DNA from: a virus
Virus record (IMG/VR): IMGVR_UViG_3300045988_116178
Coordinates: 1 to 41,032 of that record
Strand: one strand, 5' to 3'
DNA length: 41,032 bases
The notes below the pieces were generated by a model that was not told the origin of the DNA, made no database searches, and saw only the letters and a program-made list of their open reading frames with translations. Both the position numbers and the translations under genes were made by a program. This document shows, in pieces, positions 236 to 41,032 of the stretch (position 1 is the stretch's first letter; each line of letters opens with the position of its first letter).

Positions 236-247
236 GGAGACCTAGCT

Positions 248-751: not shown

Positions 752-752
752 A

Positions 753-974
753 GTGGTAGAGAAACTTAAGCGTATCGAAATCGGGATTATCGGATCAAAC
801 AAGGTTGCACGCACCCTGCCGATGTCCGAAGAAGAGGCAGAAGTATGGTATCAGAGTTTTTGGGCAGTGGTGCAGCACAATGATAGTATCCGTCTCCCCG
901 AGATGAGACTTATGGTTCCGACTCACGCGGTTGCATGGATCGAAATCGTAGACTACAATGAGGGTGAAGAATGA
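753..974 (+). CDS. Hypothetical small protein
   Basis: GTG at 753 preceded by a GGAGG RBS (740-744). The longer ORF-track start at 714 lies inside the previous gene. Confidence 0.55.
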   Translation: MVEKLKRIEIGIIGSNKVARTLPMSEEEAEVWYQSFWAVVQHNDSIRLPEMRLMVPTHAVAWIEIVDYNEGEE

Positions 975-1207
975 TACCACGCTACTACGATACCGCGCCT
1001 TATCAAGACGTGGTAGAACACTGCAGGAAATACCTAGATGCAAGACTCAAAGCAGTAGAAGCAAAGCTAAAAACAATACGCGAAGAAAGCGAACAGCCTA
1101 CACGGGTTGTTATTCTTAAAGACTCTGCTATGATTAAAGAGTGGGAAGTAATAGTAGTAAGAAAGGGGAACAGTGTATGGGAATCGCCAATTGGCCGCGC
1201 GAAGTAG
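971..1207 (+). CDS. Hypothetical small protein
   Basis: 78-aa ORF. ATGA start/stop overlap with the upstream gene suggests translational coupling. Confidence 0.6.
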   Translation: MIPRYYDTAPYQDVVEHCRKYLDARLKAVEAKLKTIREESEQPTRVVILKDSAMIKEWEVIVVRKGNSVWESPIGRAK

Positions 1208-1674
1208 CCCAAGAAGTACGCGAAAATCCCGCAGAATTCCTACGCAAAGCCTTCGCCACAGGAGGTTTTCTAGCAGACACGGAATTCAAACTATATGCGG
1301 AAGCCGGGAAACCGTTCGTCATGCGGCTAGAAGAAGCATGGCTCCCCTATTTGCAGATCGACTACTGGCGGCCCATGACAGCGGGCGGCGTCATGCTCAA
1401 CCAGCTAGTAGCATCACCCCACAGGCCCTACGGTGAGACAGAACCAAGGTGGACGCTGAACGCGCACTATCAAACGATCTACCGTGCAGGGCTCCCGTGG
1501 AGCGTGGTCACAGAAGGAGAGGTCAGCGACATGGCCGAGTCTGTTTGGGAAGAAGATGCTGCCAGCATCCTAACGCGGCGTGGGACGCGGAAAGACGCTT
1601 GGCTATTCCCCTACGGGACCAGCAAACTAACAGAGGGCGGGGACGAGACCGTTCTTCACTCGCGCAACTATTAG
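1177..1674 (+). CDS. Hypothetical early protein, AWFFPxG-family paralog 2
   Basis: Internal ATG at 1177 with a GGGGA RBS 8 nt upstream. Motifs VRENPAEFLRKAFATGG and DAWLFPYG. Confidence 0.75.
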   Translation: MGIANWPREVAQEVRENPAEFLRKAFATGGFLADTEFKLYAEAGKPFVMRLEEAWLPYLQIDYWRPMTAGGVMLNQLVASPHRPYGETEPRWTLNAHYQTIYRAGLPWSVVTEGEVSDMAESVWEEDAASILTRRGTRKDAWLFPYGTSKLTEGGDETVLHSRNY

Positions 1675-1688
1675 GAAAACCCGAACAG

Positions 1689-1718
1689 TTGACACTGCTT
1701 GAAGGATTATGATACGAT
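1689..1718 (+). promoter_or_regulatory. Putative sigma-70/sigma-A type promoter (TTGACA-18-TACGAT with TG extension)
   Basis: TTGACA at 1689-1694 and tgaTACGAT at 1710-1718, in the gap upstream of the gene starting at 1748. Confidence 0.45.
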
Positions 1719-1747
1719 AGCGGCAAGCGACAGTAAGGAGAGAAAAG

Positions 1748-2263
1748 ATGTATACTCAGCAAGGACGGGAAGAGTTCGACAGAATCGTAAAAAACCCGCT
1801 AGAGTTCCTTCGGGAAGAACTGGATGAAGGCGGCGCGCTATGCACATCAATCTTCAGCTACAATGACATAGAAGATGCGCCGATACTTCTCAGATTCAGC
1901 GGCGGGTTCGCACCTTGCGTCCATGTAGACATTTTAGGGCGGTACGGCGGTGTTGTTTCGCTTGCTTCCTACCTAACATTCTGGAAACCTTGGCAAACGG
2001 GAGTAACCAAGTGGCGGATTTCACAGTTCAACCTGGGGGAAATCTACGTCCCCCGCGACTACGCTGGAACAGCGGAGGACATCGGCACTCAAGAGATGGA
2101 AGAAAAGTGGGGAAGGGCAGTAATGCAAGCAGAGGCGGAACCGCGTTGCGCATCGGTATGGTACTTTCCGCGCGGGACACGGGCCGCACGAACCTACTCG
2201 GACGCGGCACTATTCCACGCTAACAGCAAAGCGCAAACAGGTGAACACTATGCCGCATGGTAA
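1748..2263 (+). CDS. Hypothetical early protein, AWFFPxG-family paralog 3
   Basis: 171-aa ORF with an AGGAGA RBS. Motifs VKNPLEFLREELDEGG and SVWYFPRG. Confidence 0.8.
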   Translation: MYTQQGREEFDRIVKNPLEFLREELDEGGALCTSIFSYNDIEDAPILLRFSGGFAPCVHVDILGRYGGVVSLASYLTFWKPWQTGVTKWRISQFNLGEIYVPRDYAGTAEDIGTQEMEEKWGRAVMQAEAEPRCASVWYFPRGTRAARTYSDAALFHANSKAQTGEHYAAW

Positions 2264-2325
2264 AGCAAAAGAAAACATTATCAAACAGATTCAAGACGAT
2301 CCAGCGAGACGAGAAAGGAAAAACT

Positions 2326-3084
2326 ATGAAGCTAATCGACCTTAACAGCCGCGTACACGACGCTTGCACCAACGTCATACGCAGGATGGAAACAGCCGAC
2401 CTAGCGCGCCCAGCGGGGCTTACCAGCGCAGCGTCCCTAGCCTACCGGATGCTCTTCAACTGGCTAATGTCAGAACACGGTTACGGGCCAGACGATCCAG
2501 TGGAGTGGGCGACACGCAGCACGCGGGCTGTAATCACCATCCGGGAACTCGCCACGGAATATCGTATGCTCGCTGAGACGAGTGAAGATTACGACACGCG
2601 GAGCGTGTTGCAGGATGTTGCTGTTGCGTTGAATACTCTTGCGCATGAAATTCAACACGCGCGTGTGGAGCCAGAGCCTGAGCCTAAACTGGAGCCGGGA
2701 GTACTCAAATGCGCAACGCACTCTACTATGATCGACTGGGACGACGACATTAAGGATCTGTATGAAGCCTCTGTCAAACACCTTCGAAAGGTCGCTGATA
2801 TCGTAACAGAAAAGCTAGGCGAGAAATATGTAGAGGTGTTCTCTACTCTATTGTGGAAGGCTTGCGCGTGCCAAGAGTTTATTAACACGATCACTAGGGA
2901 TAAAAAACTTCAGCTCATCGAAGCCGCAGTGATCGTCAGAGGGCTGGTAGCGCAAATTAACGACCTGTGGTTTGACACCCACATACCTGAAAAGGAAGAG
3001 ATTCTTGAGGACGCGCGGGACGTGTTGCGCGAGCTTGAGCGCACTATTCTAGCCGCTATGCCAAGCGACGACACGGAACAGTGA
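2326..3084 (+). CDS. Hypothetical acidic protein
   Basis: ATG at 2326 has an AAGGA RBS 8 nt upstream. The alternative ATG at 2257 overlaps the previous stop (ATGGTAA). Start uncertain. Confidence 0.65.
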   Translation: MKLIDLNSRVHDACTNVIRRMETADLARPAGLTSAASLAYRMLFNWLMSEHGYGPDDPVEWATRSTRAVITIRELATEYRMLAETSEDYDTRSVLQDVAVALNTLAHEIQHARVEPEPEPKLEPGVLKCATHSTMIDWDDDIKDLYEASVKHLRKVADIVTEKLGEKYVEVFSTLLWKACACQEFINTITRDKKLQLIEAAVIVRGLVAQINDLWFDTHIPEKEEILEDARDVLRELERTILAAMPSDDTEQ

Positions 3085-3110
3085 CGCATGGCACTATAAT
3101 AGAATATTGT

Positions 3111-3177
3111 GGGGACGCTAGACGCAAACCAACACGCTATGATACAATCATGGCAGCGGGGCACGCCTAGCGTCCCC
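3111..3177 (+). promoter_or_regulatory. Perfect 11-bp inverted repeat enclosing an extended -10 element
   Basis: ggggacgctag (3111-3121) pairs with ctagcgtcccc (3167-3177). TGATACAAT lies at 3140-3148 inside the loop and TATAAT at 3095-3100 just upstream. Confidence 0.35.
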
Positions 3178-3216
3178 GTATGTTTTACGCACCAAACAGG
3201 AAGGACACAGAAAGCC

Positions 3217-4047
3217 ATGACAAAACAAACCAGCACTCCGGGATACTACACGATCCCAGAACTAACAGACAAAGACCTAACCAGCCTCAAGTACCCCGTA
3301 CACGTCGCCAAGGTAACATCCCCTCACATCGTAACGCTTTACGCCGAAGGTAGTCACCTTGCCATGTCAAGCATGGTGCCGGATAGTGTGGACTTCGACC
3401 TGATTAAACAGTTCTGTTTGTTGTCCCGGCAAGAAGAACAACTCCTATACGACTTTTGCAAGAAGCATAATGTTAGCGTGTTGTGTGAAGTACGCGCACC
3501 AGAATATAATCTCATGCGCTGGCAGAAATCTGCTATCAAGCCGCTTCTCGTATGCCACAACTACGACGGCAGGACCGCTGATCCTAGACTAATGGTCACA
3601 CTTCACTCAGCATACTCACTAAGATTCAACAGATGGGCAACCATCAGCAGCGATACCCGTACCGTAACAGAGAACGTTAGCCTTAGTCTTGCTATCGACC
3701 TAGCCAAGCAAGAGACGGACACCCCCGGTATCCTTATCAAAGACAAAACGGGGAAAACGTATCGCGTGGACAGTGAAGAATGGCAGTGTCGCAACAAGCT
3801 CCTATGGGACTTGTCTGAGGACTTGCGGGAAGGCCGCTTACGTAGGCTCACTTACCCGCGCCTAGACGAAAGGGAAGAATACTACCGGGATCGCATGCGG
3901 AAAACGCTAGAGGAACGCCCGCAAGTATGGCAAGACCTGCAAGAAGGTCGCACTCCACTATGGGCAGTATTCCACGCCTTGCGGGAAGGTCACGGTACGT
4001 ATGATACGCATAAGCTGATGGAGAAAATGTACCCCGACCTAGAATAA
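3217..4047 (+). CDS. Hypothetical protein (last gene of the rightward arm)
   Basis: ATG at 3217 with a GGAAGGA RBS about 12 nt upstream. The ORF-track start at 3109 lies in the regulatory gap. Confidence 0.7.
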   Translation: MTKQTSTPGYYTIPELTDKDLTSLKYPVHVAKVTSPHIVTLYAEGSHLAMSSMVPDSVDFDLIKQFCLLSRQEEQLLYDFCKKHNVSVLCEVRAPEYNLMRWQKSAIKPLLVCHNYDGRTADPRLMVTLHSAYSLRFNRWATISSDTRTVTENVSLSLAIDLAKQETDTPGILIKDKTGKTYRVDSEEWQCRNKLLWDLSEDLREGRLRRLTYPRLDEREEYYRDRMRKTLEERPQVWQDLQEGRTPLWAVFHALREGHGTYDTHKLMEKMYPDLE

Positions 4048-4264: not shown

Positions 4265-4615
4265 TTAAGCATCCCCGTTCAACACATCACACATCAACTG
4301 AGGAGCCTTCAACAACACCCTGTCAACCACGCTCACATCACACTGGAACCGGGCGGCAAGCTCAGTACGAGTCCAACCACACACATACTTCAACACAAGC
4401 ATCTGCCTCCACACCGGCAACAACGCTCTCAGTCCGGCCTCAACGTCAACAACCACACAACACAGCTTACCCACATGCCCCGGATCACGCCGAGCACGCG
4501 GCATACCCGGCTCCACGCGCGGCACATCCTCCCCGATAGGACCATCAAAACCATGCTGGCAGAAAACAAGTGGCAGCGCGGCACACACCACGCCCGGCGT
4601 ATAATAGTCACCCAT
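4265..4615 (-). CDS. Sigma-70 region-4-like HTH protein (C-terminal half of a bipartite sigma-like pair)
   Basis: LRALLPVWRQMLVLKYVCGWTRTELAARFQCDVSVVDRVLLKA resembles the sigma r4 consensus L..LP...R.v..L.y..G.s..EiA...g.s..tV...l..A. The ATG at 4615 overlaps the upstream stop (ATGGGTGA). Confidence 0.6.
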   Translation of the reverse strand: MGDYYTPGVVCAALPLVFCQHGFDGPIGEDVPRVEPGMPRARRDPGHVGKLCCVVVDVEAGLRALLPVWRQMLVLKYVCGWTRTELAARFQCDVSVVDRVLLKAPQLMCDVLNGDA

Positions 4616-5024
4616 TAAACAAACCATCCTCCCCAACATATAGCCCAGACGGAACCTCACGCTGAGACAACGCCATATCAGGACGCCCCTTCCCCTTAGC
4701 ACGCTTATAGCCAGCCAAGCAAGCCCAGCGGAAATGATTCACCAAACCCGCCACGCCAGCACGCTCCCAACTCTTAACAAGCAGACGCGGATCACGCATA
4801 GTATCAAGCCAAGCCCAACCCAAGAGCTCAAGAAAATCACAACGCAAACGCCTAGACGCAACCCAACAGCCACGACACAAGCCATAACCAACAGCATCCT
4901 CAAACGATGCGAAACCATCACGACGCTTCTCCCCAGCACTATAAGGCATAATACGCAAAGCTTCCTTCACGCGCTGCTCATCCACAGGCCCGAAACCATG
5001 CTCAACCCCAGCAACACTCTTCAT
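4608..5024 (-). CDS. Hypothetical protein, possibly sigma region-2-like (N-terminal half of the pair)
   Basis: 138-aa ORF. FEDAVGYGL ... GWAWLDTMRDPRL weakly resembles the sigma r2 core-binding and -10 recognition segments. Translationally coupled to 4265-4615. Confidence 0.45.
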   Translation of the reverse strand: MKSVAGVEHGFGPVDEQRVKEALRIMPYSAGEKRRDGFASFEDAVGYGLCRGCWVASRRLRCDFLELLGWAWLDTMRDPRLLVKSWERAGVAGLVNHFRWACLAGYKRAKGKGRPDMALSQREVPSGLYVGEDGLFNG

Positions 5025-7080: not shown

Positions 7081-7269
7081 TTAACGCTCCTCCTCCATAG
7101 TAAAAAGCTTGACAATATCATCAGTCAACTTAGCCAGCTTTTTATCTAGTTCTTCTCGTTCTTTCTGATTGCGCTTAATAGCCCGCATCATTTTCACAGT
7201 GTCAACCACAACAGCAGCAAACAATCCCACTGTCAGTCCGACAGCAATCCACATAAGAAAAGTACCCAA
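7081..7269 (-). CDS. 62-aa membrane protein
   Basis: N-terminal TM helix FLMWIAVGLTVGLFAAVVV followed by a charged tail. Confidence 0.6.
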   Translation of the reverse strand: MGTFLMWIAVGLTVGLFAAVVVDTVKMMRAIKRNQKEREELDKKLAKLTDDIVKLFTMEEER

Positions 7270-7281
7270 AGCGCCTTCCTT

Positions 7282-8115
7282 TCAACTATTGTTGCGGGCG
7301 TCAAACCCGCCAAACCAAGTACGAGACGGATCACACGACAACACAGCAAACCGCTGAGCAGAAGGATCACACGTCCCCTCACGCTGCTTAACCACAGCAA
7401 CACGCATCTCACCACGCATACCCTCATAAGCAGGCGGCTTCAAACCAACAGTCAACACAAGCTCAGGCTTCTCAGCAACACCATTCTTAATCTCACTACG
7501 AGCAGGCGGGCGAGAAGGATCACTCACAGCCGCCGTACTCTTATCCGTAGCATGATGCAAAACAATACTCACACACCCAATCTGCCGAGTAAACGACGTA
7601 ATATCATTCATCACAGCCATCTGAGCTTGATAGTCAGACTCGCTCCCACTAAAATCCATAAGATTATCAAACACAACAACCTTAGGATACTCGTTGAAAC
7701 AAGTCACGAAATTGTTAACCTGATCCTCCACAATATGCCAAGTAATAGGATTACCATGACAAAACGTAATGTTGTTACGTGACAAGGCAGACAGTAGGAA
7801 GTCAGCGCCTTCATGTGTTTCCATTAGCGCGTCAATCTCACGAGTGTTCTTGCCTGTCACGATAGACGCGACGCGACTAGCCGCCGTAGACGCGCTCATG
7901 TCAGCACTAAAATAGAGCGTGGGAAGATTCCACTTAGACACCATATACAACGCTAGGCCGCTCTTCTGGCTACCGCTACGGCCAGCAATCATAATCTCCT
8001 GACCGTAATGGAACCTGCAACCCAAGCCGTACACGTCATCAAAACCGGGAATGCGTGGAAGCTCGCGAGCGAGATTCTTACGAGCAAGCAGCCCCCTGAA
8101 AGCGTTACCAGCCAT
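7282..8115 (-). CDS. RecA-fold ATPase, DnaB-like helicase C-terminal domain type
   Basis: Walker A-like GRSGSQKSG, Walker B-like VVVFDNLMD, and SIVLHHATDK. Strong AGGAGGAA RBS. Confidence 0.7.
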   Translation of the reverse strand: MAGNAFRGLLARKNLARELPRIPGFDDVYGLGCRFHYGQEIMIAGRSGSQKSGLALYMVSKWNLPTLYFSADMSASTAASRVASIVTGKNTREIDALMETHEGADFLLSALSRNNITFCHGNPITWHIVEDQVNNFVTCFNEYPKVVVFDNLMDFSGSESDYQAQMAVMNDITSFTRQIGCVSIVLHHATDKSTAAVSDPSRPPARSEIKNGVAEKPELVLTVGLKPPAYEGMRGEMRVAVVKQREGTCDPSAQRFAVLSCDPSRTWFGGFDARNNS

Positions 8116-31324: not shown

Positions 31325-31975
31325 TCAGTAAGAAGTTGCGGCGGGGCGGAGCACCGGCACCCCGGGCCCCCGCCGCTGTGTGGGAGCCGCAAACCGGACG
31401 GGCTATCTGTGGCTAGTTCCCATCCGTAAACACCGGCACCACAAGCCGCTCCCACTGGACGTGTTTCCTCTCAACAGGGGACTCTCAATCCCCAAACCTT
31501 AAAAGACAAGTAAAGCATAAATAAAGCAAGGTAAAAGAAACGGTAACGCGATACCCTATTCCAGATACCGCGCTACCGCGTGTGAGAATCCAAACCAGAC
31601 GAACCTCACTAAAAACAGTCCATCCCTAAACGCCAACCACATAGGGCGTTCTCACAGAGAGCGTTTGCTATCCTGCTTGCCAGAACCACAACACAGTCCT
31701 TTACCATCAAGACAGGCAACAGTTCTAGCCGATATTAAATTATCACACTAGCCACACCCAGAAAGGCGTAGCCCCCACAAAATGACGGCACCAACCACAC
31801 ACATGAAACAACACGTGCCGCCCTTCCCCAAAGAACCAAAGAACCTTGGGGGACTTGGCAACAGCCACCCAAACAGGCGCGTTCACCACACTTAAACCCA
31901 GTCCACTCTCTCGCCGCCGGAAGCAGCGAGAGGCGGTCTGGTGAGGCCCCCTAAACCCGGGCGGGGAACCCCCTG

Positions 31976-32059
31976 TACTCACAGAGGGAGTCGAACCCTC
32001 ACAGCCACAAGGCCAGCAGATTTTGAGTCTGCCATGTCTACCAATTCCATCATGTGAGC
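31976..32059 (-). tRNA. tRNA-Leu (anticodon CAA), class II with a long variable arm
   Basis: Hand-folded cloverleaf. Acceptor GCTCACA/TGTGAGT (one G-U pair). D arm ATG-GAATTGGTAGA-CAT. Anticodon arm GCAGA-CTCAAAA-TCTGC. 15-nt variable arm. T arm GAGGG-TTCGACT-CCCTC. Discriminator A. No encoded CCA. Confidence 0.85.
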
Positions 32060-32076
32060 CAACACCCACCAGTATA

Positions 32077-32322
32077 CTACTTAAAGAACACTTTAAGCAA
32101 ATCCGGGCGGAAACCAGACCAACGCTCCTGACCAGCAGGCTCATCAACCTCAACCACAGGAGCCGAAGTAAAACCCAAACCAGTCAAGCGCTCGCGGGAC
32201 ACAGTATCCTCACTCAAGTCAACAGTCTCATACCCAACACCACGCTTATCCAACCACCGCTTAGTCGCAGTACAACCAGTGCAATTAGGAATAGTATAAA
32301 CAGTTACAGCCACAATACGCAA
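32077..32322 (-). CDS. nrdH: NrdH/glutaredoxin-like redoxin
   Basis: 81 aa. VTVYTIPNCTGCTATKRWLDKRGVGYETVDL shows the CxxC thioredoxin-fold N-terminus typical of NrdH. Confidence 0.85.
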   Translation of the reverse strand: MRIVAVTVYTIPNCTGCTATKRWLDKRGVGYETVDLSEDTVSRERLTGLGFTSAPVVEVDEPAGQERWSGFRPDLLKVFFK

Positions 32323-32888: not shown

Positions 32889-33231
32889 TCAACATCCCCC
32901 CTCTCATGGTGCCATCGGCGTTTAAATATGCAGGATGCGTTTCCTGCTTACGAAACTTCTGCTTACTCTCTTCAATCAGACGCTTACGCGCCCACCAGCC
33001 CTCACTAGAACTCTTCCGCGCGTGATGCTTACTACACAACCCGCGTAGGTTGCGGAACGAATGATCGTCCCCCGGCTTAATATGATCAACATCCGTCGCC
33101 TTCTCTGGGCAACGTTCTTCTCTGGTTATCATCCACTCGCAGCGATACCCGCAGCGTTCTAAGACTCGTTTACGGCGGGCCTGCCAGTCAGCAGGAAGCC
33201 GCTCACGGCGGCGACTAGTCTCCCAAGGCAT
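32767..33231 (-). CDS. HNH endonuclease (terminase-associated)
   Basis: CEW...CPEKATDVDHIKPGDDHSFRNLRGLCSKHHARK carries the H-N-H core. ATG at 33231 lies 9 nt after GGAG. The formal GTG at 33291 is less likely. Confidence 0.85.
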   Translation of the reverse strand: MPWETSRRRERLPADWQARRKRVLERCGYRCEWMITREERCPEKATDVDHIKPGDDHSFRNLRGLCSKHHARKSSSEGWWARKRLIEESKQKFRKQETHPAYLNADGTMRGGMLNVENSDANKPARRRQAEPRRPRVSWRSPTDQNTPPTQTVA

Positions 33232-33840
33232 AAACACGCGCTCCTGTCGTTTGAGTCCCGTAGGAGGGCCAGCAGCGTTGCTGACAGCCACATCCTGACA
33301 TTGCGCGCCCCAGCAAGAAAAAACGCGCTAAGCGGCCGGAGAGAACCGAGAAAACAGGGAAAGGAATAAGCCGTTCCCCCGCGCAACCCCACACCAACGG
33401 TTGCGAGTCTCAATCAACCCCCCTACGGGCCATCTTATGCGCCCGGTAAAGTCCACACGCTCTAGCAGCAGTGTGATCGAACAACCCATACCACACAGGC
33501 AATGGGAGCATATTATTTAACCCGAACGCAAGAATCATTAAAACCAATTTTCTAACACCATAAAGTTCGCGAATATGGTTCGCGCACCCGCGAAGCGGAA
33601 CCGTACAATCGCGAAAGGAAAAAAGATAGCGAAAGAAAAAAGAACAAAAACAATAATTAAAAACATATAAGTTCGCGCAGATGAATTATGCACGGCGAAG
33701 CCGAAGCATACACATCTCGCGCGCTATCGCGCACTCAAAAATTCCTAAGGAGAAAAGGGTTGTGAGCTTAGAAACGGACACCGAAGGTGTCTGTTTCGCT
33801 TGCGAACAACCTAAAGCCGGACTTTAAAAGAAAGTAACAA

Positions 33841-34020
33841 AGAAAATAATAATAATATTTAATATAATATATTCTAAATGTTTACTTTAAGTAAAACACT
33901 CATGTTAATGTTAATGTTTTACTTTTAGTAATTATTATTAGAAATAATACTGTTATATTCTAACATTAATTCCTAATGTTTAATGTTAATAATAATTATT
34001 TATTTATATTTAGTTTTAGT
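33841..34020. other. Extreme AT-rich block (candidate DNA unwinding element)
   Basis: Hand count gives 24 G/C in 180 nt (about 13% GC). No ORF on any frame. Contains AT palindromes such as aataattatt. Confidence 0.8.
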
Positions 34021-34099
34021 GTTAGAACTTAATGTTTAACATTAGGTTCTAAGTTTTTATCCCTCTACTAATAAGTTTGGATTTGAGTAAGTACCTAAA

Positions 34100-34420
34100 A
34101 TGGGGTTTTGTGACTAAGGTCACTAAACTAGTATTAGAACTAACCTCTAAGCACTAACGTTAGGGACTTTAGTCCCTAGACTAACTACTAAAAGCATGTT
34201 AATAACACTAGCGCTAACACTAGTGTTTAACACTAGATAGTAAACTAAGAGTAAAGTATATTTATAACACTTAGAGTATAAATATATATAACACTAAACA
34301 CTAACACTTAGTGTTAACACTTAACATTAAGTTAACATTAGTACTTAAATATAAAAGTTAGAATATAAATATATATAACACTAACACTAAAGATAACATT
34401 AAGTATTAACACTTAGAGAG
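34100..34420. repeat. Array of TAACA(C/T)T(A/T)AG-type short repeats and palindromes (iteron-like)
   Basis: TAACACTAG at 34203, 34215 and 34228. At least a dozen related copies. 27-nt direct repeat at 34271-34297 and 34358-34384 (26/27 identical). Palindrome aacactagtgtt at 34216-34227. Confidence 0.75.
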
Positions 34421-34536
34421 AAGCTAAGGCTTCTCTCTTCTCTTCTCTCTTTGCTCTCTCTTCTCTCTTTCTTTCTTTATGTTACTTTCTTTCTTTCTCT
34501 CTTCTCTCTCATTTCTCTCTTCTCTTCTCTCTTCTT
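34415..34536 (+). repeat. 10-bp hairpin leading into a 107-nt polypyrimidine (CT) tract
   Basis: agagagaagc (34415-34424) pairs with gcttctctct (34429-34438). Positions 34430-34536 contain only 5 purines (34453, 34479, 34481, 34484, 34511). Confidence 0.9.
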
Positions 34537-35309
34537 AGCCCGGTTAGCCCGGCCCCCGCCGGGCGCAAAACCTGCACCCCACACAAGCCCACAAACCCTC
34601 ACGCAGCCGTTAAGGGGTCTAGAAGGCGATCTGAGCCACTTTCGGCCCGAACCTGCCCACACATGCCACCCCACCCCTGAAAGGCCGTTAGAGACGCTTA
34701 CAGAGCGTTCTACGCCCACGGCCCGCGCAGGCAGGCAGCGAGCATCCGCGAGCGCCACCCAAACCAACCCCACACCCACGCGACCATAGGATCACGCCGT
34801 GCGCCCTATGCTCCTAACAGCTAACACCAAAACTAACACGAGTTAGTAGCCCCTCTAACAGCCTTTCACACCCAGCCTAGACATGGACACACAAACATAC
34901 ATAAAAGCCCGCCAGAACACCATACAGACAATCCAGCACCAGAACCAACAACCCGGCACCCCCACGCGCCCGCGAGCGCCCCCTGCCCACAACGCACACA
35001 CAACGCAACACACCCTTAGCCGACACGAGCACCCCACACCCAGCGCCCACACCAGCACCGAACACGCATAAACTCTCACCCAAAAAAGTCTGGAAATGCC
35101 GGCGAGTTTTTTTGCTAAGACGTTGCGGCGAAGGGGGTTTTGGGTGGTTTTGGGTGTATGCCCCGGTGTTTTTGTCAAGTGGGTTGTGTGTGTTTTGGGT
35201 GTGGGGTTGGTCTCTTTTTTGTGGTTTGTGCTTGGCTTGGTTTGTGTATTTTTATTCGTGTTTGTTTATGGTTATGTTGGTAGTGGTTTGGTATTGTGTT
35301 GGTAAACGT

Positions 35310-35469
35310 TTTGTGTTTGTCAAGTTGTTTCATTATGTGAGGTGGCTTTGCTTTGTTTGGTTGGTTGTGGTATTGTCGCGCGCTTTGTTGCTCATGGTTT
35401 TTTGTGTTTGTCAAGTGTGTTCATATTCTGAGACGGGCTTGCTAGATCACTTTGGTTTGTGTTTGTCAA
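35310..35469 (+). repeat. Three copies of the 14-mer TTTGTGTTTGTCAA, each with a conserved downstream CAYTAT box
   Basis: Exact copies at 35310-35323, 35401-35414 and 35456-35469, plus a degenerate copy at 35167-35179. Downstream boxes are CATTAT, CATATT and CACTAT, 8-9 nt after each copy. Confidence 0.85.
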
Positions 35470-35570
35470 TAGCATCTCACTATGTGAACGTGGTTTGCGT
35501 TTTTGGGTTTGTTGTGTTATGATGCGCTCTTTTTGTTTTTGTGATGTTGGTTACATTTGCTTTGCGTGTG

Positions 35571-35599
35571 TTGACATTCGTTTTTGGTTGTGGTATTCA
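35571..35599 (+). promoter_or_regulatory. Putative early promoter TTGACA-17-TATTCA with TG extension
   Basis: TTGACA at 35571-35576, a 17-nt spacer, and tggTATTCA ending at 35599. Confidence 0.6.
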
Positions 35600-35632
35600 C
35601 GCGCGCGCGCGTTTAATAATAAGGTATAGGCG

Positions 35633-35648
35633 TGTGACCTAGTTCACA
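35633..35648. promoter_or_regulatory. Perfect TGTGA-N6-TCACA palindrome (CRP/GlxR-type site); also a hairpin plus T5
   Basis: TGTGACCTAGTTCACA. The flanking cg/cg extend the stem to 7 bp, followed by TTTTT at 35651-35655. Confidence 0.5.
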
Positions 35649-35653
35649 CGTTT

Positions 35654-35685
35654 TTGACTTGACTAGGCGAGCAGACTGATATACT
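35654..35685 (+). promoter_or_regulatory. Possible promoter: overlapping TTGACT boxes plus TATACT
   Basis: TTGACT at 35654-35659 and 35659-35664, and TATACT at 35680-35685. Spacers of 20 or 15 nt are both non-optimal. Confidence 0.4.
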
Positions 35686-35739
35686 CTATATATGTCAGCA
35701 AGGGACGGGCCCTACTGACCGGATAGAGAGAGTGTGAAA

Positions 35740-36090
35740 ATGGAAATCGTCCTATCGCTCAGCACTAAAGGCGCACTGGCTACCAGCGCGGCCGATATTA
35801 GGATGCTTGCGGAGGGATGCGAATCGCTTCCCTACACTAGCTATCGCGGTTGCGCTGAGCGCGCAACCTATGTCCTGCTTTTGAAGCACGCGAAAAATGC
35901 TGCTGTCTGTCTTGACGCGCTGTCTCGCTTCCGTAGCGACGTCTCGCTTTTGCTTCCTGCTCTCAAATTTGAGATTATGCGTGCGCTAACGCTGTACAAC
36001 TGCATGCAGGATGGTGGGCTTGCGAATCAACTCAGGTCACGTCTCTTGTGTGCTCAGGAATGCGTGGAAGCTATCGGCAAGGGAGAGTGA
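35740..36090 (+). CDS. Hypothetical early protein
   Basis: First ORF of the rightward arm. ATG at 35740 (the formal GTG at 35734 is an alternative). Weak GAGAGAG RBS. Confidence 0.7.
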   Translation: MEIVLSLSTKGALATSAADIRMLAEGCESLPYTSYRGCAERATYVLLLKHAKNAAVCLDALSRFRSDVSLLLPALKFEIMRALTLYNCMQDGGLANQLRSRLLCAQECVEAIGKGE

Positions 36091-36110
36091 TAGTTTTAAT
36101 TCTTGAAAGC

Positions 36111-36162
36111 TTCCCCGCCTTAATGGCAAGTTTTGATGTTGGTTCGATCCCATCGCGGGGAA
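36111..36162 (+). other. tRNA-like minihelix element E1 (acceptor stem plus canonical T arm, no anticodon arm)
   Basis: ttccccgc (36111-36118) pairs with gcggggaa (36155-36162). The T arm gttgg-TTCGATC-ccatc (36138-36154) abuts the 3' acceptor strand. A mini arm ctt-aatggc-aag is also present. Confidence 0.4.
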
Positions 36163-36203
36163 CGATGGCTCAGAGAATGTGAGCTAACACACAATAGAAT
36201 AAC

Positions 36204-36232
36204 TTGACAAGTCGAAACTGTTGAGTTATTCT
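36204..36232 (+). promoter_or_regulatory. Putative promoter TTGACA-17-TATTCT
   Basis: TTGACA at 36204-36209, exact 17-nt spacer, TATTCT at 36227-36232. Embedded in the 9-bp inverted repeat agaataact/agttattct. Confidence 0.65.
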
Positions 36233-36284
36233 TAATACATGAGCTAATCAGTGTGGTTAGCTACTGGATATCTCAGTTAGGGAG

Positions 36285-36722
36285 ATGTTGAAATTGGCAC
36301 GACAGAGTGACATTATGGACAAGGCCGTTTGCGACTTCGTACGACGTTTTGAGAATGAGGGAATTATTCAAGGCGTGAAGCGATGCGGAATGAATTTGGA
36401 CGTTTACGCACCTACCCCTTGCGCAGCGCTTGAGTGTGGCGTTTTGGTTATGGACAGTTACGAGACGCCTATTGCCCGCGTGAACCTTGGTGAGCGTGAT
36501 GAAAACGGATACTGCAAGGTCGAACTGTCTGCATACTATTACAATTACAGCGTTACGACTTCTCGCCACTTGACCTACTTCCTTAGTGCGTTGCGTAAGG
36601 CGGGCGTTATCGGGATGAATGTTTTTGAGCGTCGCGCCAAGCGTTACGATGTTGAGCAGCGCGCTATTGAAGCGCTGCGCGCCAACGGTGACAACCGCTA
36701 TACTACGTGGTTCACACTCTGA
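36285..36722 (+). CDS. Hypothetical early protein
   Basis: 145-aa ORF. Start uncertain: the ATG at 36285 abuts GGGAG, and the ATG at 36315 is an alternative. Confidence 0.7.
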   Translation: MLKLARQSDIMDKAVCDFVRRFENEGIIQGVKRCGMNLDVYAPTPCAALECGVLVMDSYETPIARVNLGERDENGYCKVELSAYYYNYSVTTSRHLTYFLSALRKAGVIGMNVFERRAKRYDVEQRAIEALRANGDNRYTTWFTL

Positions 36723-36734
36723 TCTTATTGGTTA

Positions 36735-36793
36735 TCCCGCGTTTGATAACCTACCTGAAAAATGGTGGCTTGGGTTTAATTCCCAAGGCGGGA
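36735..36793 (+). other. tRNA-like element E2 (related to E1)
   Basis: tcccgc (36735-36740) pairs with gcggga (36788-36793). The hairpin cttggg-tttaatt-cccaag (36769-36787) abuts the 3' strand. Shares GCGGG(G)AACGAT and the downstream CTTGACAA with E1. Confidence 0.3.
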
Positions 36794-36812
36794 ACGATCA
36801 CACAAAAAAGAC

Positions 36813-36841
36813 TTGACAACCTACAGTAGACACAGTAAACT
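36813..36841 (+). promoter_or_regulatory. Putative promoter TTGACA-17-TAAACT
   Basis: TTGACA at 36813-36818, exact 17-nt spacer, TAAACT at 36836-36841. Confidence 0.65.
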
Positions 36842-36913
36842 TATAGGCATAAGGGAACAGCGAATTAAGGCAAACGGCCTTATCCCTTACATTCACAGAA
36901 AGACGAAAGACAA

Positions 36914-37402
36914 ATGAGCTTCAAGACATTCACCGAAGAACAAACCAAGGAAGCCCAAACATTCATTGACGAATACAAGGCGACACTCTATAAAGCGTTT
37001 GAGTACATTCTTGAAAATTGGTACGATTACGACGCGGGAGACCTGAAGCCATTCCTAACCGACTACGCAGCGGAGGACGTGGCAGATGTGATCTATGAAG
37101 AAGCGGAACAATTTACCCAAGAGTGGCACATTCCCGAAACGGTAGCCGACTACCTAGCTCACACGAATTTTGGGCTCTGCGGCTCAACGCCTTTCGACTG
37201 GCTAGTTGAGGCAGCATTAGACTCAGAGAATGAAGAAGAGATGAACGACGCGGTGGCGCGCTGCATCCTGTGGGGATGCATGGCAACACAGGTTATTGAG
37301 GACTTTCTAACGAATGTTACCGTGACCATCTACGACATGAACGCTGAAATTGGCCGTGAATATGCAGAAGGATGGGGGGTAGCTGTAAAGCTGTTCGCAT
37401 GA
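36914..37402 (+). CDS. Hypothetical acidic early protein
   Basis: 162-aa ORF, visibly Asp/Glu-rich. Confidence 0.8.
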   Translation: MSFKTFTEEQTKEAQTFIDEYKATLYKAFEYILENWYDYDAGDLKPFLTDYAAEDVADVIYEEAEQFTQEWHIPETVADYLAHTNFGLCGSTPFDWLVEAALDSENEEEMNDAVARCILWGCMATQVIEDFLTNVTVTIYDMNAEIGREYAEGWGVAVKLFA

Positions 37403-37411
37403 CATAGACGC

Positions 37412-37450
37412 GGTTAGCCCGTGCAGATCAGTTTCTCACACGGGCTAACC
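37412..37450 (+). promoter_or_regulatory. Perfect 12-bp stem, 15-nt loop intergenic hairpin
   Basis: ggttagcccgtg (37412-37423) pairs with cacgggctaacc (37439-37450). No U-tract follows. Confidence 0.45.
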
Positions 37451-37500
37451 AAACCAAGACAAAAAACAATTCCCATAAACCAAGAATTGAGGAACACAAA

Positions 37501-37995
37501 ATGGGAACTAACAGCAAGACATATGCAGACTACATTGAAGAACGCGATAAGCTGATTGATCTAGCGTTAGGCGCATTGGACACCGACAGCCTACCTGAGA
37601 TTAACGATCAGTTAATTGAGCTCGCTAACCAAGCTATCGCAGCTGGGTATGGTGATCGTATTGAAGCAGACCGAGACTACATCCCAACACAGATCACAAT
37701 ACACGCATCTGTTGAAGATGCAGTAAGGGCCTATGTGAAAGCGGGAGAGACCGGCAACATTTACCACGATAAGACTCTGGACATCTACATATTGGACTTG
37801 TCAGACCGGGACTTGCAGGGGTGGCTAGCCTACTTTGGACTCACGCTATGGGGAGACGCGGAACAGCCTAACGATGTCGTAGTTAACATGATTAACGCTA
37901 TTGGCAGCCTTGGGACCATCCCCGAAGCTGAAGACTATCTAGACCTGTCCCGTATTGACGTGGTTAACGCTAAGCGCTTGACAATTGAGGACTGA
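37501..37995 (+). CDS. Hypothetical acidic early protein
   Basis: 164-aa ORF with a GAGGA RBS inside a 19-nt leader shared with gene 38268. Confidence 0.8.
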   Translation: MGTNSKTYADYIEERDKLIDLALGALDTDSLPEINDQLIELANQAIAAGYGDRIEADRDYIPTQITIHASVEDAVRAYVKAGETGNIYHDKTLDIYILDLSDRDLQGWLAYFGLTLWGDAEQPNDVVVNMINAIGSLGTIPEAEDYLDLSRIDVVNAKRLTIED

Positions 37996-38001
37996 GCTAT
38001 T

Positions 38002-38178
38002 ATGGCAACATTCATGCAACTATTGGAAATACTGTTAGCTTTCATCTTCTGGCTATTGAACTTCCTGAGAATCGGACTCATTGGAATTCTGTTCGCTATG
38101 CCAATTAGCCTAGCAACAGCCTGGTTCCTAGCGAAACACCCGAACGCTAACCCGTTTGACAACCATAAGCAATACTGA
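38002..38178 (+). CDS. 58-aa two-helix membrane protein (below the ORF-track cutoff)
   Basis: ATG at 38002 lies about 11 nt after GAGGA. Translation MATFMQLLEILLAFIFWLLNFLRIGLIGILFAMPISLATAWFLAKHPNANPFDNHKQY. Confidence 0.5.
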   Translation: MATFMQLLEILLAFIFWLLNFLRIGLIGILFAMPISLATAWFLAKHPNANPFDNHKQY

Positions 38179-38184
38179 TAAGCT
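38156..38184 (+). promoter_or_regulatory. Putative promoter TTGACA-17-TAAGCT
   Basis: TTGACA at 38156-38161, exact 17-nt spacer, TAAGCT at 38179-38184. Overlaps the end of the small ORF. Confidence 0.5.
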
Positions 38185-38186
38185 AA

Positions 38187-38240
38187 GACCATAGGCGACA
38201 TTGAAGAATAGGAAACATTGAAATACTGTCGCCTATGGTC
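38187..38240 (+). promoter_or_regulatory. Perfect 14-bp stem, 26-nt loop hairpin at the predicted 5' end of the transcript
   Basis: gaccataggcgaca (38187-38200) pairs with tgtcgcctatggtc (38227-38240). Confidence 0.5.
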
Positions 38241-38267
38241 ACTCACAAAGAATTGAGGAACACAAAA

Positions 38268-38873
38268 ATGGAAACCCCCGAAACCACTGACTACCTGATC
38301 ATTGCACACATGCAAGTCCCCATCAACACGCGATACAACCTTAAACCCATGTCAATGTTCATCCCCAAGGATATGCACGTTAGCGAGTTTATCCAGTACG
38401 TTTGTGAGGATTCATACACGTTTGACGAGTTGGAAGATCTGGCTATGCCTGATGCTGCTGAGAAGCGACGCGACTACGGGCTCTCATACGATCGTATCAT
38501 GTTTGTGCTGACAGCTGGACGGTTTATTGAACAACTCGCACAAACGTTGCCAGAAGTCCCCGCATTGACAGAGTACGCTTTGAAGGAAATGGGGATCACC
38601 TTGGAGCGCGTTCCGTTCCTGATTACCAAGGATACAGAATTTATCTTTGAGGAAGACGGAGTAATGACCACTGAAGTGTATGCTAACTTCATTTTCGGTT
38701 GGTATACTGAGTGCCTGTCATGCCTGATGCAGGATTACAGTATTGCGACTTCCTATCTTCCTACTGGCGACTATGGCCTGTTGGAAATGATGAATCTGTT
38801 CCTGTGGGAGCGTGGAATGTGGGAGATGGGCGAGAAATTGCAGCTTCCCAAGTTCAATATTCGATTCAACTGA
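38268..38873 (+). CDS. Hypothetical acidic early protein
   Basis: The ATG at 38268 is preceded by the same 19-nt leader (aagaattgaggaacacaaa) as gene 37501. The ORF-track start at 38235 lies inside the hairpin. Confidence 0.8.
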   Translation: METPETTDYLIIAHMQVPINTRYNLKPMSMFIPKDMHVSEFIQYVCEDSYTFDELEDLAMPDAAEKRRDYGLSYDRIMFVLTAGRFIEQLAQTLPEVPALTEYALKEMGITLERVPFLITKDTEFIFEEDGVMTTEVYANFIFGWYTECLSCLMQDYSIATSYLPTGDYGLLEMMNLFLWERGMWEMGEKLQLPKFNIRFN

Positions 38874-38900
38874 CCTGACATTCTGAGAGGGCGACTTACA

Positions 38901-39155
38901 GTGCGGAATTTTGATCTGATTATTGAGACCGACCGTCCCGACGTTATCGAGACCATTGTAAACGCGGTATTGGCCTTGGACAACACTGTCTGGCAGGATC
39001 AGACACTGAAGGCAACTGCAGTGGTTCCTGACAGTACGGGAGAGCCTGTGTTCAGGCAGCTTGCGGGAGATGTTGACACTGTGGACTTTGAGCCTGTATA
39101 TTCTACTCATAGTGATGGTTGGTCGTCGTTCAACACTGTTGAAGATGAATACTAA
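38901..39155 (+). CDS. Hypothetical small protein
   Basis: GTG at 38901 lies about 10 nt after GAGAGGG. 84 aa. Confidence 0.6.
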   Translation: MRNFDLIIETDRPDVIETIVNAVLALDNTVWQDQTLKATAVVPDSTGEPVFRQLAGDVDTVDFEPVYSTHSDGWSSFNTVEDEY

Positions 39156-39549
39156 TCTTATTGAAAGAATGGACATGAAAATGAGTGACAACGGTTACAC
39201 TATTGAAACCAGGGAGCGACTGAATGAGGCGACACGCAAGCTGAAAGTAAAAGTTGACCACTATCGAGACGTGGTTCCGCTTACGCAGGCGGGGATCGAA
39301 AAGTGTTTGAATCTCCCCGACGACTGGGACGCTCAGGCAGTGGAAGAAAACTGGACTACAGCAACAGAAGTACTGCTGGCAGTTCCGCTGGCATGTCAAC
39401 TGGGGAAACAGACTCTCTACAGGCGCCGGGGTATTGAAGCTGTTACGCTTATCATCCAGTTGGATGACACGGTGGAAGCAGTAAACAACTTTGAGGACGC
39501 GCTAAGGGATGCAGTCAACGAAAACGAACAGGAGAAAACCGATGACTGA
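39145..39549 (+). CDS. Hypothetical protein
   Basis: ORF frame is clear but the start is ambiguous (ATG at 39145, 39169, 39175 or 39181). The ORF-track start at 39061 overlaps the previous gene. Confidence 0.6.
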   Translation: MNTNLIERMDMKMSDNGYTIETRERLNEATRKLKVKVDHYRDVVPLTQAGIEKCLNLPDDWDAQAVEENWTTATEVLLAVPLACQLGKQTLYRRRGIEAVTLIIQLDDTVEAVNNFEDALRDAVNENEQEKTDD

Positions 39550-39910
39550 ATTTCAGAGTATTGACTTCCAGACCTACACGGCAGTCCAAGAAGCAATCGC
39601 CGTATTGACCGAAGTGGACAAACTACCTTTCAGAGTGTCGAAAATGGGGAGCGGCCTAGCGGCGGCATACGCGGCACGGTTGCGTGAGCTGGCCGAAACG
39701 CCGGTGAGCGACGAAGATAACACGCCTTCTATTGACAGTATTAGGGCGGTGTGTGGTAAGATTACTGACATGCTACAGGTCCTTAAGTGGATGTGGGAAA
39801 CGCTGCTAGTTGTAGCAGATGCTTACGATTACACGATACGCGAAGCAATTGACGTGCTGGAAACAGTGAACCGCGTAGCACTTGACCCCAACCCCGACAA
39901 CAAGAACTAG
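39542..39910 (+). CDS. Hypothetical protein
   Basis: ATG at 39542 lies 8 nt after GGAG and overlaps the upstream stop (ATGACTGA). Confidence 0.75.
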   Translation: MTEFQSIDFQTYTAVQEAIAVLTEVDKLPFRVSKMGSGLAAAYAARLRELAETPVSDEDNTPSIDSIRAVCGKITDMLQVLKWMWETLLVVADAYDYTIREAIDVLETVNRVALDPNPDNKN

Positions 39911-39932
39911 CTGAATTCTGGAGGAACATGTT

Positions 39933-40286
39933 ATGACACAAACTGAACAGCTGGACAAGCTGAACATGCTGGCAGAAGCGCTATCTGCCCTATTGAACGT
40001 GTACCGAGAGGACATTAAGGGTATTCTGTTTATGGAGATCGTTGACGACGGTATGCCAGACTGTTGGACGTTCCATAATGTTGGTACCCGTGGCGATACG
40101 TGGCTTAGCGTAGTACGGGAAGCGCGGGCGCGCGTCGATATTGACGAAGGACTGGAAAAGGGTGACACGGCGTGTAGCCGGGCGCGTAAGCGGCACTTAC
40201 AGGCCATTTCAGTGGTCGCAGACGAGCTTGCTTGGGTTTTGGATAGGCTTACATGCGACATTGAGGCGACAGGGGAAGAAGAATGA
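39933..40286 (+). CDS. Hypothetical protein
   Basis: 117 aa with a GGAGG RBS. Confidence 0.8.
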   Translation: MTQTEQLDKLNMLAEALSALLNVYREDIKGILFMEIVDDGMPDCWTFHNVGTRGDTWLSVVREARARVDIDEGLEKGDTACSRARKRHLQAISVVADELAWVLDRLTCDIEATGEEE

Positions 40287-40630
40287 CCGAAACAAAAAGC
40301 ACACTACAAAACGAACTAACCGCACTAAACAGGACACTACAGGATGCACTCAAAGCGTACCATAAGGAAACGGCGGATATCGGCTTTATTGAAGTGTTGA
40401 CATTCCTGCTCCCCTTTGACTGGAATAAGGAATCAATTGAGAAGCGCGGCAAGACTGTTATCTTCGTAGCCCAACACGCTCACCGCGCGGTGTTGAATAA
40501 AGCTGTTGCGGAGAGAGAGGCCCGCAGGCAGGAGCAGCGTTACCGTTTGGACGCTATTGCAACAATCATTTATGATCTGAAAGCTAAGCTTGATGAAGCA
40601 GTTGAACTAGCAGAGAAAGGAGTGCTGTAG
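40283..40630 (+). CDS. Hypothetical protein
   Basis: 115 aa with an ATGA overlap with the upstream gene. Confidence 0.8.
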   Translation: MTETKSTLQNELTALNRTLQDALKAYHKETADIGFIEVLTFLLPFDWNKESIEKRGKTVIFVAQHAHRAVLNKAVAEREARRQEQRYRLDAIATIIYDLKAKLDEAVELAEKGVL

Positions 40631-40632
40631 GA

Positions 40633-41032
40633 ATGCACCGGATTGACCCCTACGAATTGAAGTACGGAAACCCCGACTGGTGCCACGACGCGCAACCAGA
40701 CGGACAGAAAGTGGTTACGAGCCTTCTTGAAGATTTCAGGGCCAACCCCGACCAGTATCTCAACACATTCTGGTTTCCTGACAAACAAACAGGACAGATC
40801 TACAGTATTGACGACGCGATGGAAAACGGGTACCCGTTCGCCGCCACACTACACGACCATGCAGACCACACTAACCTACATGTGCGCTGGTGGATTGGTG
40901 GCAAGGAATACGTGTGCGAGTATAAACTCACTACTTGCTTCGTGCCGGGGGAAGAAGATGAGACTATTCCTGAAGTGGCTTTCACACGCATGAAAGAAGG
41001 TGTCTACGATATTGAAGGTAACGCGGGGCGCG
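40633..41032 (+). CDS. N-terminal portion of AWFFPxG-family paralog 4 (runs off the window end; this frame continues to the TGA at 145-147)
   Basis: ATG at 40633 after GGAG. Contains the family N-terminal motif (FRANPDQYLNTFWF). The conserved C-terminal half lies in the +1 frame (23-235). Confidence 0.7.
   Translation, partial: MHRIDPYELKYGNPDWCHDAQPDGQKVVTSLLEDFRANPDQYLNTFWFPDKQTGQIYSIDDAMENGYPFAATLHDHADHTNLHVRWWIGGKEYVCEYKLTTCFVPGEEDETIPEVAFTRMKEGVYDIEGNAGR
40978..41032. repeat. Terminal overlap identical to 1-55
   Basis: See the feature at 1-55. Confidence 0.95.

Follow-up and report, generated by a model that had tools for sequence, protein, structure and literature searches.

The window analysed here is a stretch of 41,032 nucleotides, positions 1 to 41,032 of IMG/VR virus record IMGVR_UViG_3300045988_116178. 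Its positions 1-55 are identical to 40978-41032, a k-mer overlap that shows the assembly to be circular; the genome proper measures 40,977 bp, and where the window begins is arbitrary. The phage is a 41-kb actinobacterial siphophage (52% G+C), probably of Schaalia, Actinomyces or a relative, and its genome has a single large gene-free block of 2.4 kb (33300-35733), which separates a late arm headed by HNH, TerS and TerL from a probable early arm on the other strand (Table 1). Nearly all sizeable repeats found in the genome are concentrated in this block, and one of its modules is an AT-rich array of short repeats (33830 to ~34440, 25% G+C) that is the subject of this study. The array is real and family-wide; its function we infer, and its sequence most likely represents a protein-binding control element, a cis-acting platform in the control region close to the inferred DNA ends (cos).

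The initial annotation of this DNA described a dense array of iterons at 34100-34420. The array is indeed dense and non-random, but that interval is only the right half of the 33830-34440 block. TAACAYT occurs 15 times in 33830-34430 versus 10 times in the other 40 kb, and none of 1000 dinucleotide-preserving shuffles of the region reached 15 copies (mean 0.51 ± 0.71, maximum 4). The motif consensus is (T/A/C)TAACAYT(A/T)(A/G), and the array as a whole holds about 20 or more copies over 600 bp, which are mostly reverse in the left arm, with 13 forward and two reverse copies in the right arm. The detailed observations of the initial annotation hold: TAACACTAG occurs three times (34203, 34215 and 34228), the variants TAACACTTAG, TAACATTAAG, TAACATTAG and TAAACTAAG are present, two TA-rich 27-mers in the right array (34271-34297 and 34358-34384) are identical at 26 of 27 positions, palindromes lie at 34110-34123, 34161-34178 and 34216-34227, and the region reported as saturated with stop codons has no open reading frame (ORF) of at least 40 aa between 33827 and 34451.

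Two aspects of that description require revision. The copies had been placed one helical turn apart, but periodicity analysis gives ~12.4 bp, not 10.5 bp, and the distances between copies are multiples of this value (12/13, 25, 37, 50, 62, 74 and 87). This spacing corresponds to ~1.18 turns, so it is not one helical turn and neighbouring sites are rotated by ~65 degrees. An 87-nt higher-order repeat spans 34202-34390, while contiguous runs with a period of 7 (6.4 copies, 34289-34330) and 13 (4.8 copies, 34289-34348) indicate that the basic unit is a 6-7-nt element, TTARYAC / CACTTAG. Secondly, the AT-rich DNA had been placed beside the repeats and is instead the array itself. Ranked by duplex stability, the five weakest 40-bp windows of the genome lie without exception inside 33844-34376 (-35 to -39 kcal/mol versus a genome mean of -57 ± 4.3), three of them in the left arm. 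Both strands of the array also fold better than shuffles (z-scores of -7.4 and -10.4) because it contains many inverted motif copies, and the array has no G/C strand asymmetry.

Rfam gave no match at E <= 1 within 33000-35600, and neither megablast nor blastn found anything meaningful when the block was compared with 50,697 phage records and 72,556 plasmids. When viral and genome collections were searched for TAACAYT in three phased copies, the outcome was uninformative, with only unrelated taxa among the matches listed (at least 120). Type III toxin-antitoxin RNA repeats and clustered regularly interspaced short palindromic repeats (CRISPR) would appear as tandem 28-40-nt units, separated by spacers in the case of CRISPR and preceding a toxin gene in ToxIN-type systems; the units here measure 6-13 nt, are not interrupted by spacers and have no ORF downstream. 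An AT-rich spot at 6901, in the replication module and with one strong motif match, was considered as an alternative origin and rejected as a short repeat-free gap between small membrane-protein ORFs.

Table 1. Features of the phage genome and repeat arrays of related lineages. Identities are mean pairwise values within the lineage whose TerL proteins are 95-99% identical; positions in the last four rows are those of the sequences named.
Feature	Position	Strand	Identity (gaps)	Description
Weak sigma-region-4-like protein	4702-4265	-		past the replication genes
Replication genes		-		polymerase-exonuclease-like protein, exonuclease, DnaB-like helicase, RusA, primase
Structural and lysis genes		-		after TerL
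TerL	31324-29609	-		
tRNA-Leu (CAA)	31975-32059			between TerS/glutaredoxin and TerL; sole tRNA from tRNA scan
Glutaredoxin		-		between TerS and TerL
TerS	32888-32352	-		PF25673
HNH	33291-32767	-		
Hairpin module	33762-33807		94% (1%)	GTGAGCTTAGAAAC-[GGACACC GAAG GGTGTCT]-GTTTCGCTTGCGAAC; in structured GC-rich DNA, between array and HNH
Left AT-rich arm	33830-34052		72% (20%)	copies mostly reverse (ATGTTA / AGTGTTA)
Conserved core	34053-34199		89% (none)	147 nt between arms; more stable part of array
Right array	34200-34416	+		13 direct TAACAYT copies, ~12.4-bp phasing
Right array, proximal	34200-34289		86% (3%)	
Right array, distal	34290-34416		57% (27%)	
Closing hairpin	34416-34437			GAGAGAAGC-TAAG-GCTTCTCTC; ends array
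Polypyrimidine tract	34430-34535	+ (polypurine on -)		~105 nt
C/A-rich stretch	34540-35090			non-coding
CTAACA box	34814-34862	+	95% (none)	isolated in GC-rich DNA; position weight matrix matches at 34822 and 34834
Strand-composition flip	35050-35150			GC skew -0.50 to +0.58, AT skew +0.64 to -0.63; non-coding
G/T-rich stretch	35160-35720			~600 nt ahead of first early gene
L015 (Schaalia genome contig)	7222-7585			~42 copies of 8/9-nt unit CAGTAAAAC(C), equal to a 17-nt unit (8+9) x 21.8
L017	8066-8134, 8257-8353			14-nt unit x 4.9 (~5), plus 42-nt repeats (interrupted by scaffold gaps) and a TA tract
L404	3541-3626			12-nt unit x 7.2
L016				weak two-copy repeat only

The array is kept in all 11 related contigs that span it, and five more that reach into it also carry it, but low identity and many gaps in the distal right array indicate turnover by gain and loss of repeat units. 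The number of forward TAACAY motifs stays similar within the lineage (10-15 per genome). L009 has 13 additional copies of a related unit, TAGAAC, and relatives also show contiguous runs of the CACTTAG type. Two more distant lineages, L011 and L014 (TerL 73-74% identical), have the same block order and short TAACAY runs, which in L011 are separated by GAGAGA..TCTC hairpins; two clear hairpins of this type, with different inner stems, flank its runs. Lineages with 58-61% TerL identity feature unrelated repeats within the same gene-free block, and the array of L404 is GC-rich and situated on the early-gene side of a motif conserved at the strand-composition flip. A Cellulosimicrobium prophage (49% identity) has no such array. 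The presence of a different repeat in the same block of each sister lineage is the pattern expected for binding sites of a specific protein.

The array is bordered and interrupted by conserved modules. The left arm contains an inverted repeat (TTAGAAC..GTTCTAA, 34022-34052) and measures 223 nt here versus 128-139 nt in relatives, with ~90-100 nt within 33850-33950 unmatched in the aligned relatives. The core features a -10-like TAAAAT (34096-34101), a palindrome, TGTGA-N6-TCAC (34109-34123), and a hairpin, TAGGGAC-TTTA-GTCCCTA (34161-34178), which shows two-sided compensatory changes in L009 and L001. Among 12 sequence variants of the palindrome (TGTGA-CTAAGG-TCAC here), the arms are constant and the 6-nt spacer is variable, a pattern of a protein-binding site rather than of a hairpin; both arms are kept in L011 and one arm has a mismatch in L014. 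The same sequence fits the CRP/GlxR-type consensus TGTGA-N6-TCACA. At the right end of the array, the stem of the closing hairpin is unchanged in all aligned relatives but L403, which has one change (a G-T pair on the plus strand). The adjoining polypyrimidine tract could form a triplex or a stable R-loop, and its core CTTTCTTTATGTTACTTTCTTTC (34471-34493) contains one reverse motif copy, ATGTTAC, and is conserved in L011 and L014. Further right, the CTAACA box carries four CTAACA copies, two of which form TAACAC motifs 12 nt apart, and a palindrome (ACTAAC-ACGA-GTTAGT, 34832-34847), and is highly conserved across the lineage while its flanks diverge.

On the late-gene side of the array, the hairpin module shows compensatory stem changes in L009 and L001, and its flanks are constant in the pattern GTGAGC..stem-loop..CGCTTGCGAAC. 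The module occurs once here and twice in L011 (7952-7905 and 7795-7750) and in L014, and three tandem ~56-nt hairpin units that resemble it are found upstream of HNH in Streptomyces phage Izzy (L393, 552-700); the regions upstream of HNH and TerS may share it as a conserved element. Two ORFs on the other side of the array, 34451-34789 (+) and 34477-34779 (-), were rejected as genes, given their low-complexity, implausible proteins and frame-breaking indels in relatives. Conserved blocks in 34540-34880, such as CGTTAAGGGGTCTAGAAGGCGATCTGAG and GAAAGGCCG..AGA.ACGCTTACAGA, recur in L011 and L014, and L015 has a similar block on the other side of the flip motif. The G/T-rich stretch probably includes tandem early promoters: it contains four copies of (T)GTTTGTCAA (35171, 35316, 35407 and 35462), three of which are followed by a CATTAT / CATATT / CACTAT element, while a TTGACA hexamer at 35571 and an AT-rich stretch precede the first early gene, and clear sigma-70-like promoters of the TTGACx-17-TATAAT type lie at the equivalent stretch of L011 and L014.

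The virion DNA ends are probably located at 35088-35150. In one 39.4-kb contig the phage sequence stops at a position equivalent to 35088, where a Nextera adapter takes over, and its start corresponds to ~35150, while two further independent contigs end at 35112 and 35118. A motif at this position, TTTTTGCTAAGACG (35109-35122; lineage-wide form TTTT(T/C)TGCTA(A/T)GACG), is kept in all lineages, and a 14-mer scan for it was too unspecific. Together, four independent ends within 62 nt, the composition flip and the conserved motif suggest that cos is at 35088-35150. The orientation agrees with that of Izzy, whose ends are known and whose HNH gene starts 793 nt from the left end. The array is therefore 0.7-1.3 kb inside the terminase-proximal end, and all genes are transcribed away from the flip point and control block. 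Most of the other contig breaks in the block, spread over 33641-34436, were rejected as physical ends; they are scattered through repeats and hairpins and were read as assembly breaks. Positions 1-70 of L007 (IMGVR_UViG_3300009965_000021), a contig end, consist of a Nextera adapter with index AAGAGGCA (CTGTCTCTTAT..CCGAGCCCACGAGAC..ATCTCGTATGCCGTCTTC), which is contaminating sequence and at the same time shows where a fragment ended near the terminus of the genome.

No sequenced phage has a TerL more than 47% identical to this one, and Streptomyces phages score best; the closest relative with a name is a terminase from a Schaalia sp. genome (60% identity), and close relatives occur in human-associated metagenomes. 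A search of the literature on Schaalia phages yielded nothing of relevance. The genes for primase and helicase are located at 5-8 kb. Past the replication genes, the C-terminus of the 4265-4702 protein has a weak sigma-70 region-4 / extracytoplasmic function (ECF)-like match that falls below the Pfam curated cut-offs. This protein has only three close homologues among 5.8 billion proteins, none with an informative name, and could not be linked to the repeat motif. One homologue belongs to GenBank 'Phage sp. ctesc4', which means that a close relative has already been deposited as an uncultured virus. The plus-strand arm, from 35734 through the window end to 4047, encodes ORFs without family matches: Pfam matched none of its ~20 ORFs (35734-41032 and 1-4047) and a single ORF matched, weakly, a PHROG of unknown function. 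The corresponding arm of relatives encodes ArdA, SocA_Panacea and HTH_17 and is hypervariable, being poorly conserved even among close relatives, which matches the expectation for early genes; this is probably an anti-defence or early arm. Coding-strand asymmetry is unusually strong across the genome (4000-33700 and 35100-41032; GC skew ~0.3, AT skew ~0.25), and the coding strands are G- and T-rich. A mechanically called ORF (31743-32153) overlaps the tRNA-Leu.

Several lines of evidence indicate that the array is a binding platform rather than junk DNA: its retention despite unit turnover, the persistence of the motif in the lineages with 73-74% TerL identity, in the CTAACA box and in the polypyrimidine core, and the use of other repeats in the same block by other lineages. 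From the repeats and their phasing, duplex stability, comparison and position, we infer protein binding, unwinding and origin function, and we tentatively propose a replication origin, an origin-like binding and unwinding platform, as the single most likely role. A small sequence-specific protein would bind the 6-7-bp units cooperatively, at roughly one site per 12.4 bp and in two opposed groups around the conserved core. Because no DNA in the genome melts more easily than the array, which also carries TA-rich tracts, local unwinding is the likeliest result of such binding, and it would allow the phage DnaB-like helicase and primase to be loaded. Transcription through the region might aid origin firing, for which the neighbouring polypurine tract might serve as an R-loop or primer site.

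An origin at this site is consistent with the opposed repeat groups that flank a gap-free conserved core, with the primase, DnaB-like helicase and exonucleases encoded by the phage, and with the fact that no origin is apparent elsewhere in the genome. As all genes point away from the block, replication from here would also be co-directional with transcription. Several points weigh against this assignment, however. No gene was recognised as coding for an initiator, whether Rep, O or DnaA-like, and none is adjacent; the neighbours of the array are HNH and TerS on one side and early ORFs of unknown function on the other, with the replication genes more than 20 kb away on the same strand. Typical origins are smaller, both in copy number and in span (>20 over 600 bp here). 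Strand composition flips at 35050-35150, ~0.7 kb from the array, and the GC skew of 34540-35090 is wrong for a rightward fork from the array. In addition, at 36-40% GC the TAACAY arrays of L011 and L014 cannot be called AT-rich, and the L404 array is GC-rich and on the early-gene side of the flip motif. Thus, of the classic iteron origin suggested by the initial annotation, the origin itself is still the likeliest function and the unstable DNA is confirmed, but the classic layout is not: the units are 6-9 bp, phased at 12.4 bp, in more than 20 copies and without a linked initiator.

A broader proposal, which we regard as rather unlikely, is that Actinomycetaceae siphophages share a previously undescribed cos-proximal element, a fast-evolving, lineage-specific array of 6-14-bp units that would nucleate a phage-specific protein filament and act as an origin, an early-late switch or both. 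With no recognisable initiator, ParA or ribbon-helix-helix partner, such an element would imply a new family of DNA-binding proteins, and the pairing of repeat and protein could define specificity, in replication or regulation, among oral phages in co-infection.

A platform for transcriptional control is a possible alternative and nearly as likely as an origin. The repeats would then be operators or upstream activator sites for a phage regulator, such as the sigma-region-4-like protein (4265-4702), that switches the late HNH-TerS-TerL operon on, shuts early transcription off, or both, in the manner of ribbon-helix-helix proteins that coat heptad arrays or of late activators on direct repeats upstream of a late promoter. 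The late operon has a conserved structured leader, and the array is positioned immediately upstream of it; the arrays of L404, L011 and L014 adjoin early promoters. Within the core, the -10-like TAAAAT is followed by the operator-like TGTGA-N6-TCAC with its constant arms and variable spacer, and the isolated 95%-conserved box (34814-34862) has the motif at 12-nt spacing in GC-rich DNA. The sigma-70 region-4 match, although weak and below the Pfam cut-off, comes last in the replication module, a frequent location for late-activator genes, and the omega protein of pSM19035 provides a precedent in which contiguous 7-bp arrays of mixed orientation overlap promoters (PMC9499535). On the other hand, no convincing conserved promoter was found in or beside the array (six promoter-like sites versus 3.4 ± 2.0 expected), and at least 20 sites over 600 bp far exceeds known operators or activator sites.

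It is quite unlikely that the array acts as RNA, as a long leader of the late operon (minus strand) or as a ~330-nt RNA from ~34108 to the 34416-34437 hairpin (plus strand), in which the repeats would be single-stranded protein-binding motifs between hairpins and the transcript would serve as a sponge, an antitermination element or a primer. Compensatory changes in several hairpins, the folding of both strands far beyond shuffles (z -7.4 and -10.4) and the alternation of GAGAGA..TCTC hairpins with TAACAY runs in L011 are compatible with this, and 34540-35090 has the skew of minus-strand genes, which suggests leftward transcription from ~35100. Yet low folding energy is a trivial outcome of a motif present in both orientations, the array lacks G/C strand asymmetry, wobble pairs indicate different strands for different hairpins, and Rfam has no match at E <= 1.

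A slippage-prone AT-rich spacer with no sequence-specific function is of similarly low probability. It would account for the low conservation of the distal array (57%, with 27% gaps) in a lineage whose TerL proteins are 95-99% identical, for the ~42 near-perfect 8/9-nt copies of L015, which look like a recent expansion, and for the many assemblies that break inside the array. It fits poorly with the finding that all lineages examined, to TerL identities as low as 58%, have a repeat array (weak in L016 alone) within genomes that are compact elsewhere, and with the persistence of TAACAY at 73-74% TerL identity, in the conserved GC-rich box and in the polypyrimidine core.

Packaging recognition, in which the repeats would bind TerS rings as a cosB- or pac-like site and position terminase for HNH-assisted cos cleavage, is very unlikely. 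The array does lie between the inferred cos and the TerS gene (32888-32352, PF25673), and its 87-bp higher-order repeat would correspond to about one turn around a TerS-sized ring. TerS identity is 64-65% in lineages that share TAACAY versus 36-45% in those with other repeats, but this divergence simply tracks overall divergence, as TerL is 74% versus 60% identical in the same comparisons. The cosB-like site raised in the initial annotation also becomes less likely given the distances, since the array begins ~0.7 kb from the ends inferred at 35088-35150, whereas the TerS protein of HK97 binds one 15-bp site located 15-29 bp from the cut (PMC11331095), and the L404 array lies beyond the conserved end motif, on its early-gene side. 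Least probable is the centromere (partition site) of a plasmid-like prophage, another suggestion of the initial annotation: many unspaced short repeats are typical of ribbon-helix-helix-bound centromeres (PMC3074162, PMC9499535) and no integrase was recognised among the window ORFs scanned, but neither was a ParA, TubZ or ribbon-helix-helix protein (Pfam, PHROGs and NCBIfam, with several structural-arm ORFs unscanned and small divergent proteins missable), and L014 and L015 are within 120-kb and 376-kb contigs, which suggests integrated prophages.

No origin, late-control region or packaging site has been defined for oral Actinomycetaceae phages, and few have been for actinobacteriophages generally, so a bounded and testable candidate element (33830-34440) and an inferred cos position are now available. 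The lineage-by-lineage replacement of repeats in the same block could be used to find the binding protein by co-variation, given full sister genomes. If the array is an origin, the cloned fragment could act as a phage-dependent replicon or as an infection-blocking titration tool in hosts that are difficult to modify genetically; if it is only regulatory or a slippage-prone spacer, the finding is an ordinary one.

Comparison with known systems places the array apart from each of them. The classical iterons of lambda ori, P1 oriR and iteron plasmids are 17-22 bp long and present in 3-9 copies with whole-turn phasing. The array resembles such origins in its direct repeats, easily unwound AT-rich DNA and lineage-specific sequences, but it lacks a set of at least three direct 17-22-bp repeats in whole-turn phase, having 6-9-bp units spaced at 12.4 bp, and its unwinding element is inside the repeats, not beside them. 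Iteron origins are normally tightly linked to the initiator gene (PMC7157519), and none was recognised in or next to these repeats. The origins of lactococcal phages (c2, sk1 and the P335 'Per' fragments) are likewise AT-rich, repeat-rich and intergenic between divergent early and late blocks near cos, and when cloned they interfere with infection by titration; they have no sequence similarity to the array, belong to phages of Firmicutes, and have fewer and longer repeats.

The closest known layout is that of the origins of Staphylococcus pathogenicity islands (SaPIs), which have 5-6-nt iterons in 6-12 copies, arranged as two opposed groups around an easily melted AT-rich centre (PMC9371898). 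Each SaPI has its own repeat sequence, which corresponds to the protein that binds it, a winged-helix Rep helicase, and the origin is directly downstream of the rep gene (PMC9371898). The array, too, has short repeats of a lineage-specific sequence, and its two arms are mostly opposed in orientation (left largely reverse, right 13 forward and two reverse). It differs in its copy number (>20), in that its AT-rich DNA is the repeats themselves while its centre (34053-34199) is a more stable conserved core, and in its neighbours, HNH and TerS, with no winged-helix rep helicase gene recognised beside it.

Ribbon-helix-helix proteins provide a further comparison. The omega protein of pSM19035 binds 7-10 contiguous heptads, direct and inverted, cooperatively and with one dimer per unit, at sites that overlap promoters (PMC9499535), and nine 9-bp repeats constitute the centromere of the actinobacterial plasmid pCXC100, which is bound by a ribbon-helix-helix ParB (PMC3074162). 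These contiguous, non-palindromic units resemble both the 8/9-nt array of L015 and the 6-7-nt runs found here, where the number of contiguous repeats (period 7 x 6.4; period 13 x 4.8) is in the range of such arrays (at least four repeats of 7-11 bp). The plasmid arrays adjoin parA/parB operons, whereas the ORFs scanned in this phage include no recognised ParA or ribbon-helix-helix gene, and no small cognate DNA-binding protein with a partition NTPase nearby. HK97, the archetype of HNH-dependent cos phages, has the same HNH-TerS-TerL set, and its single TerS site (PMC11331095), like the array, lies between cos and the terminase genes; however, that site is 15 bp long, whereas the array covers 600 bp at 0.7-1.3 kb from the inferred ends, and with its near edge at 34440 it is well beyond the tens to ~200 bp from the cut, on the terminase-gene side, that characterise cosB. 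The array is best described as a short-unit, iteron-like repeat array in a phage control region, clearly distinct from classical iteron origins, cosB sites and par centromeres.

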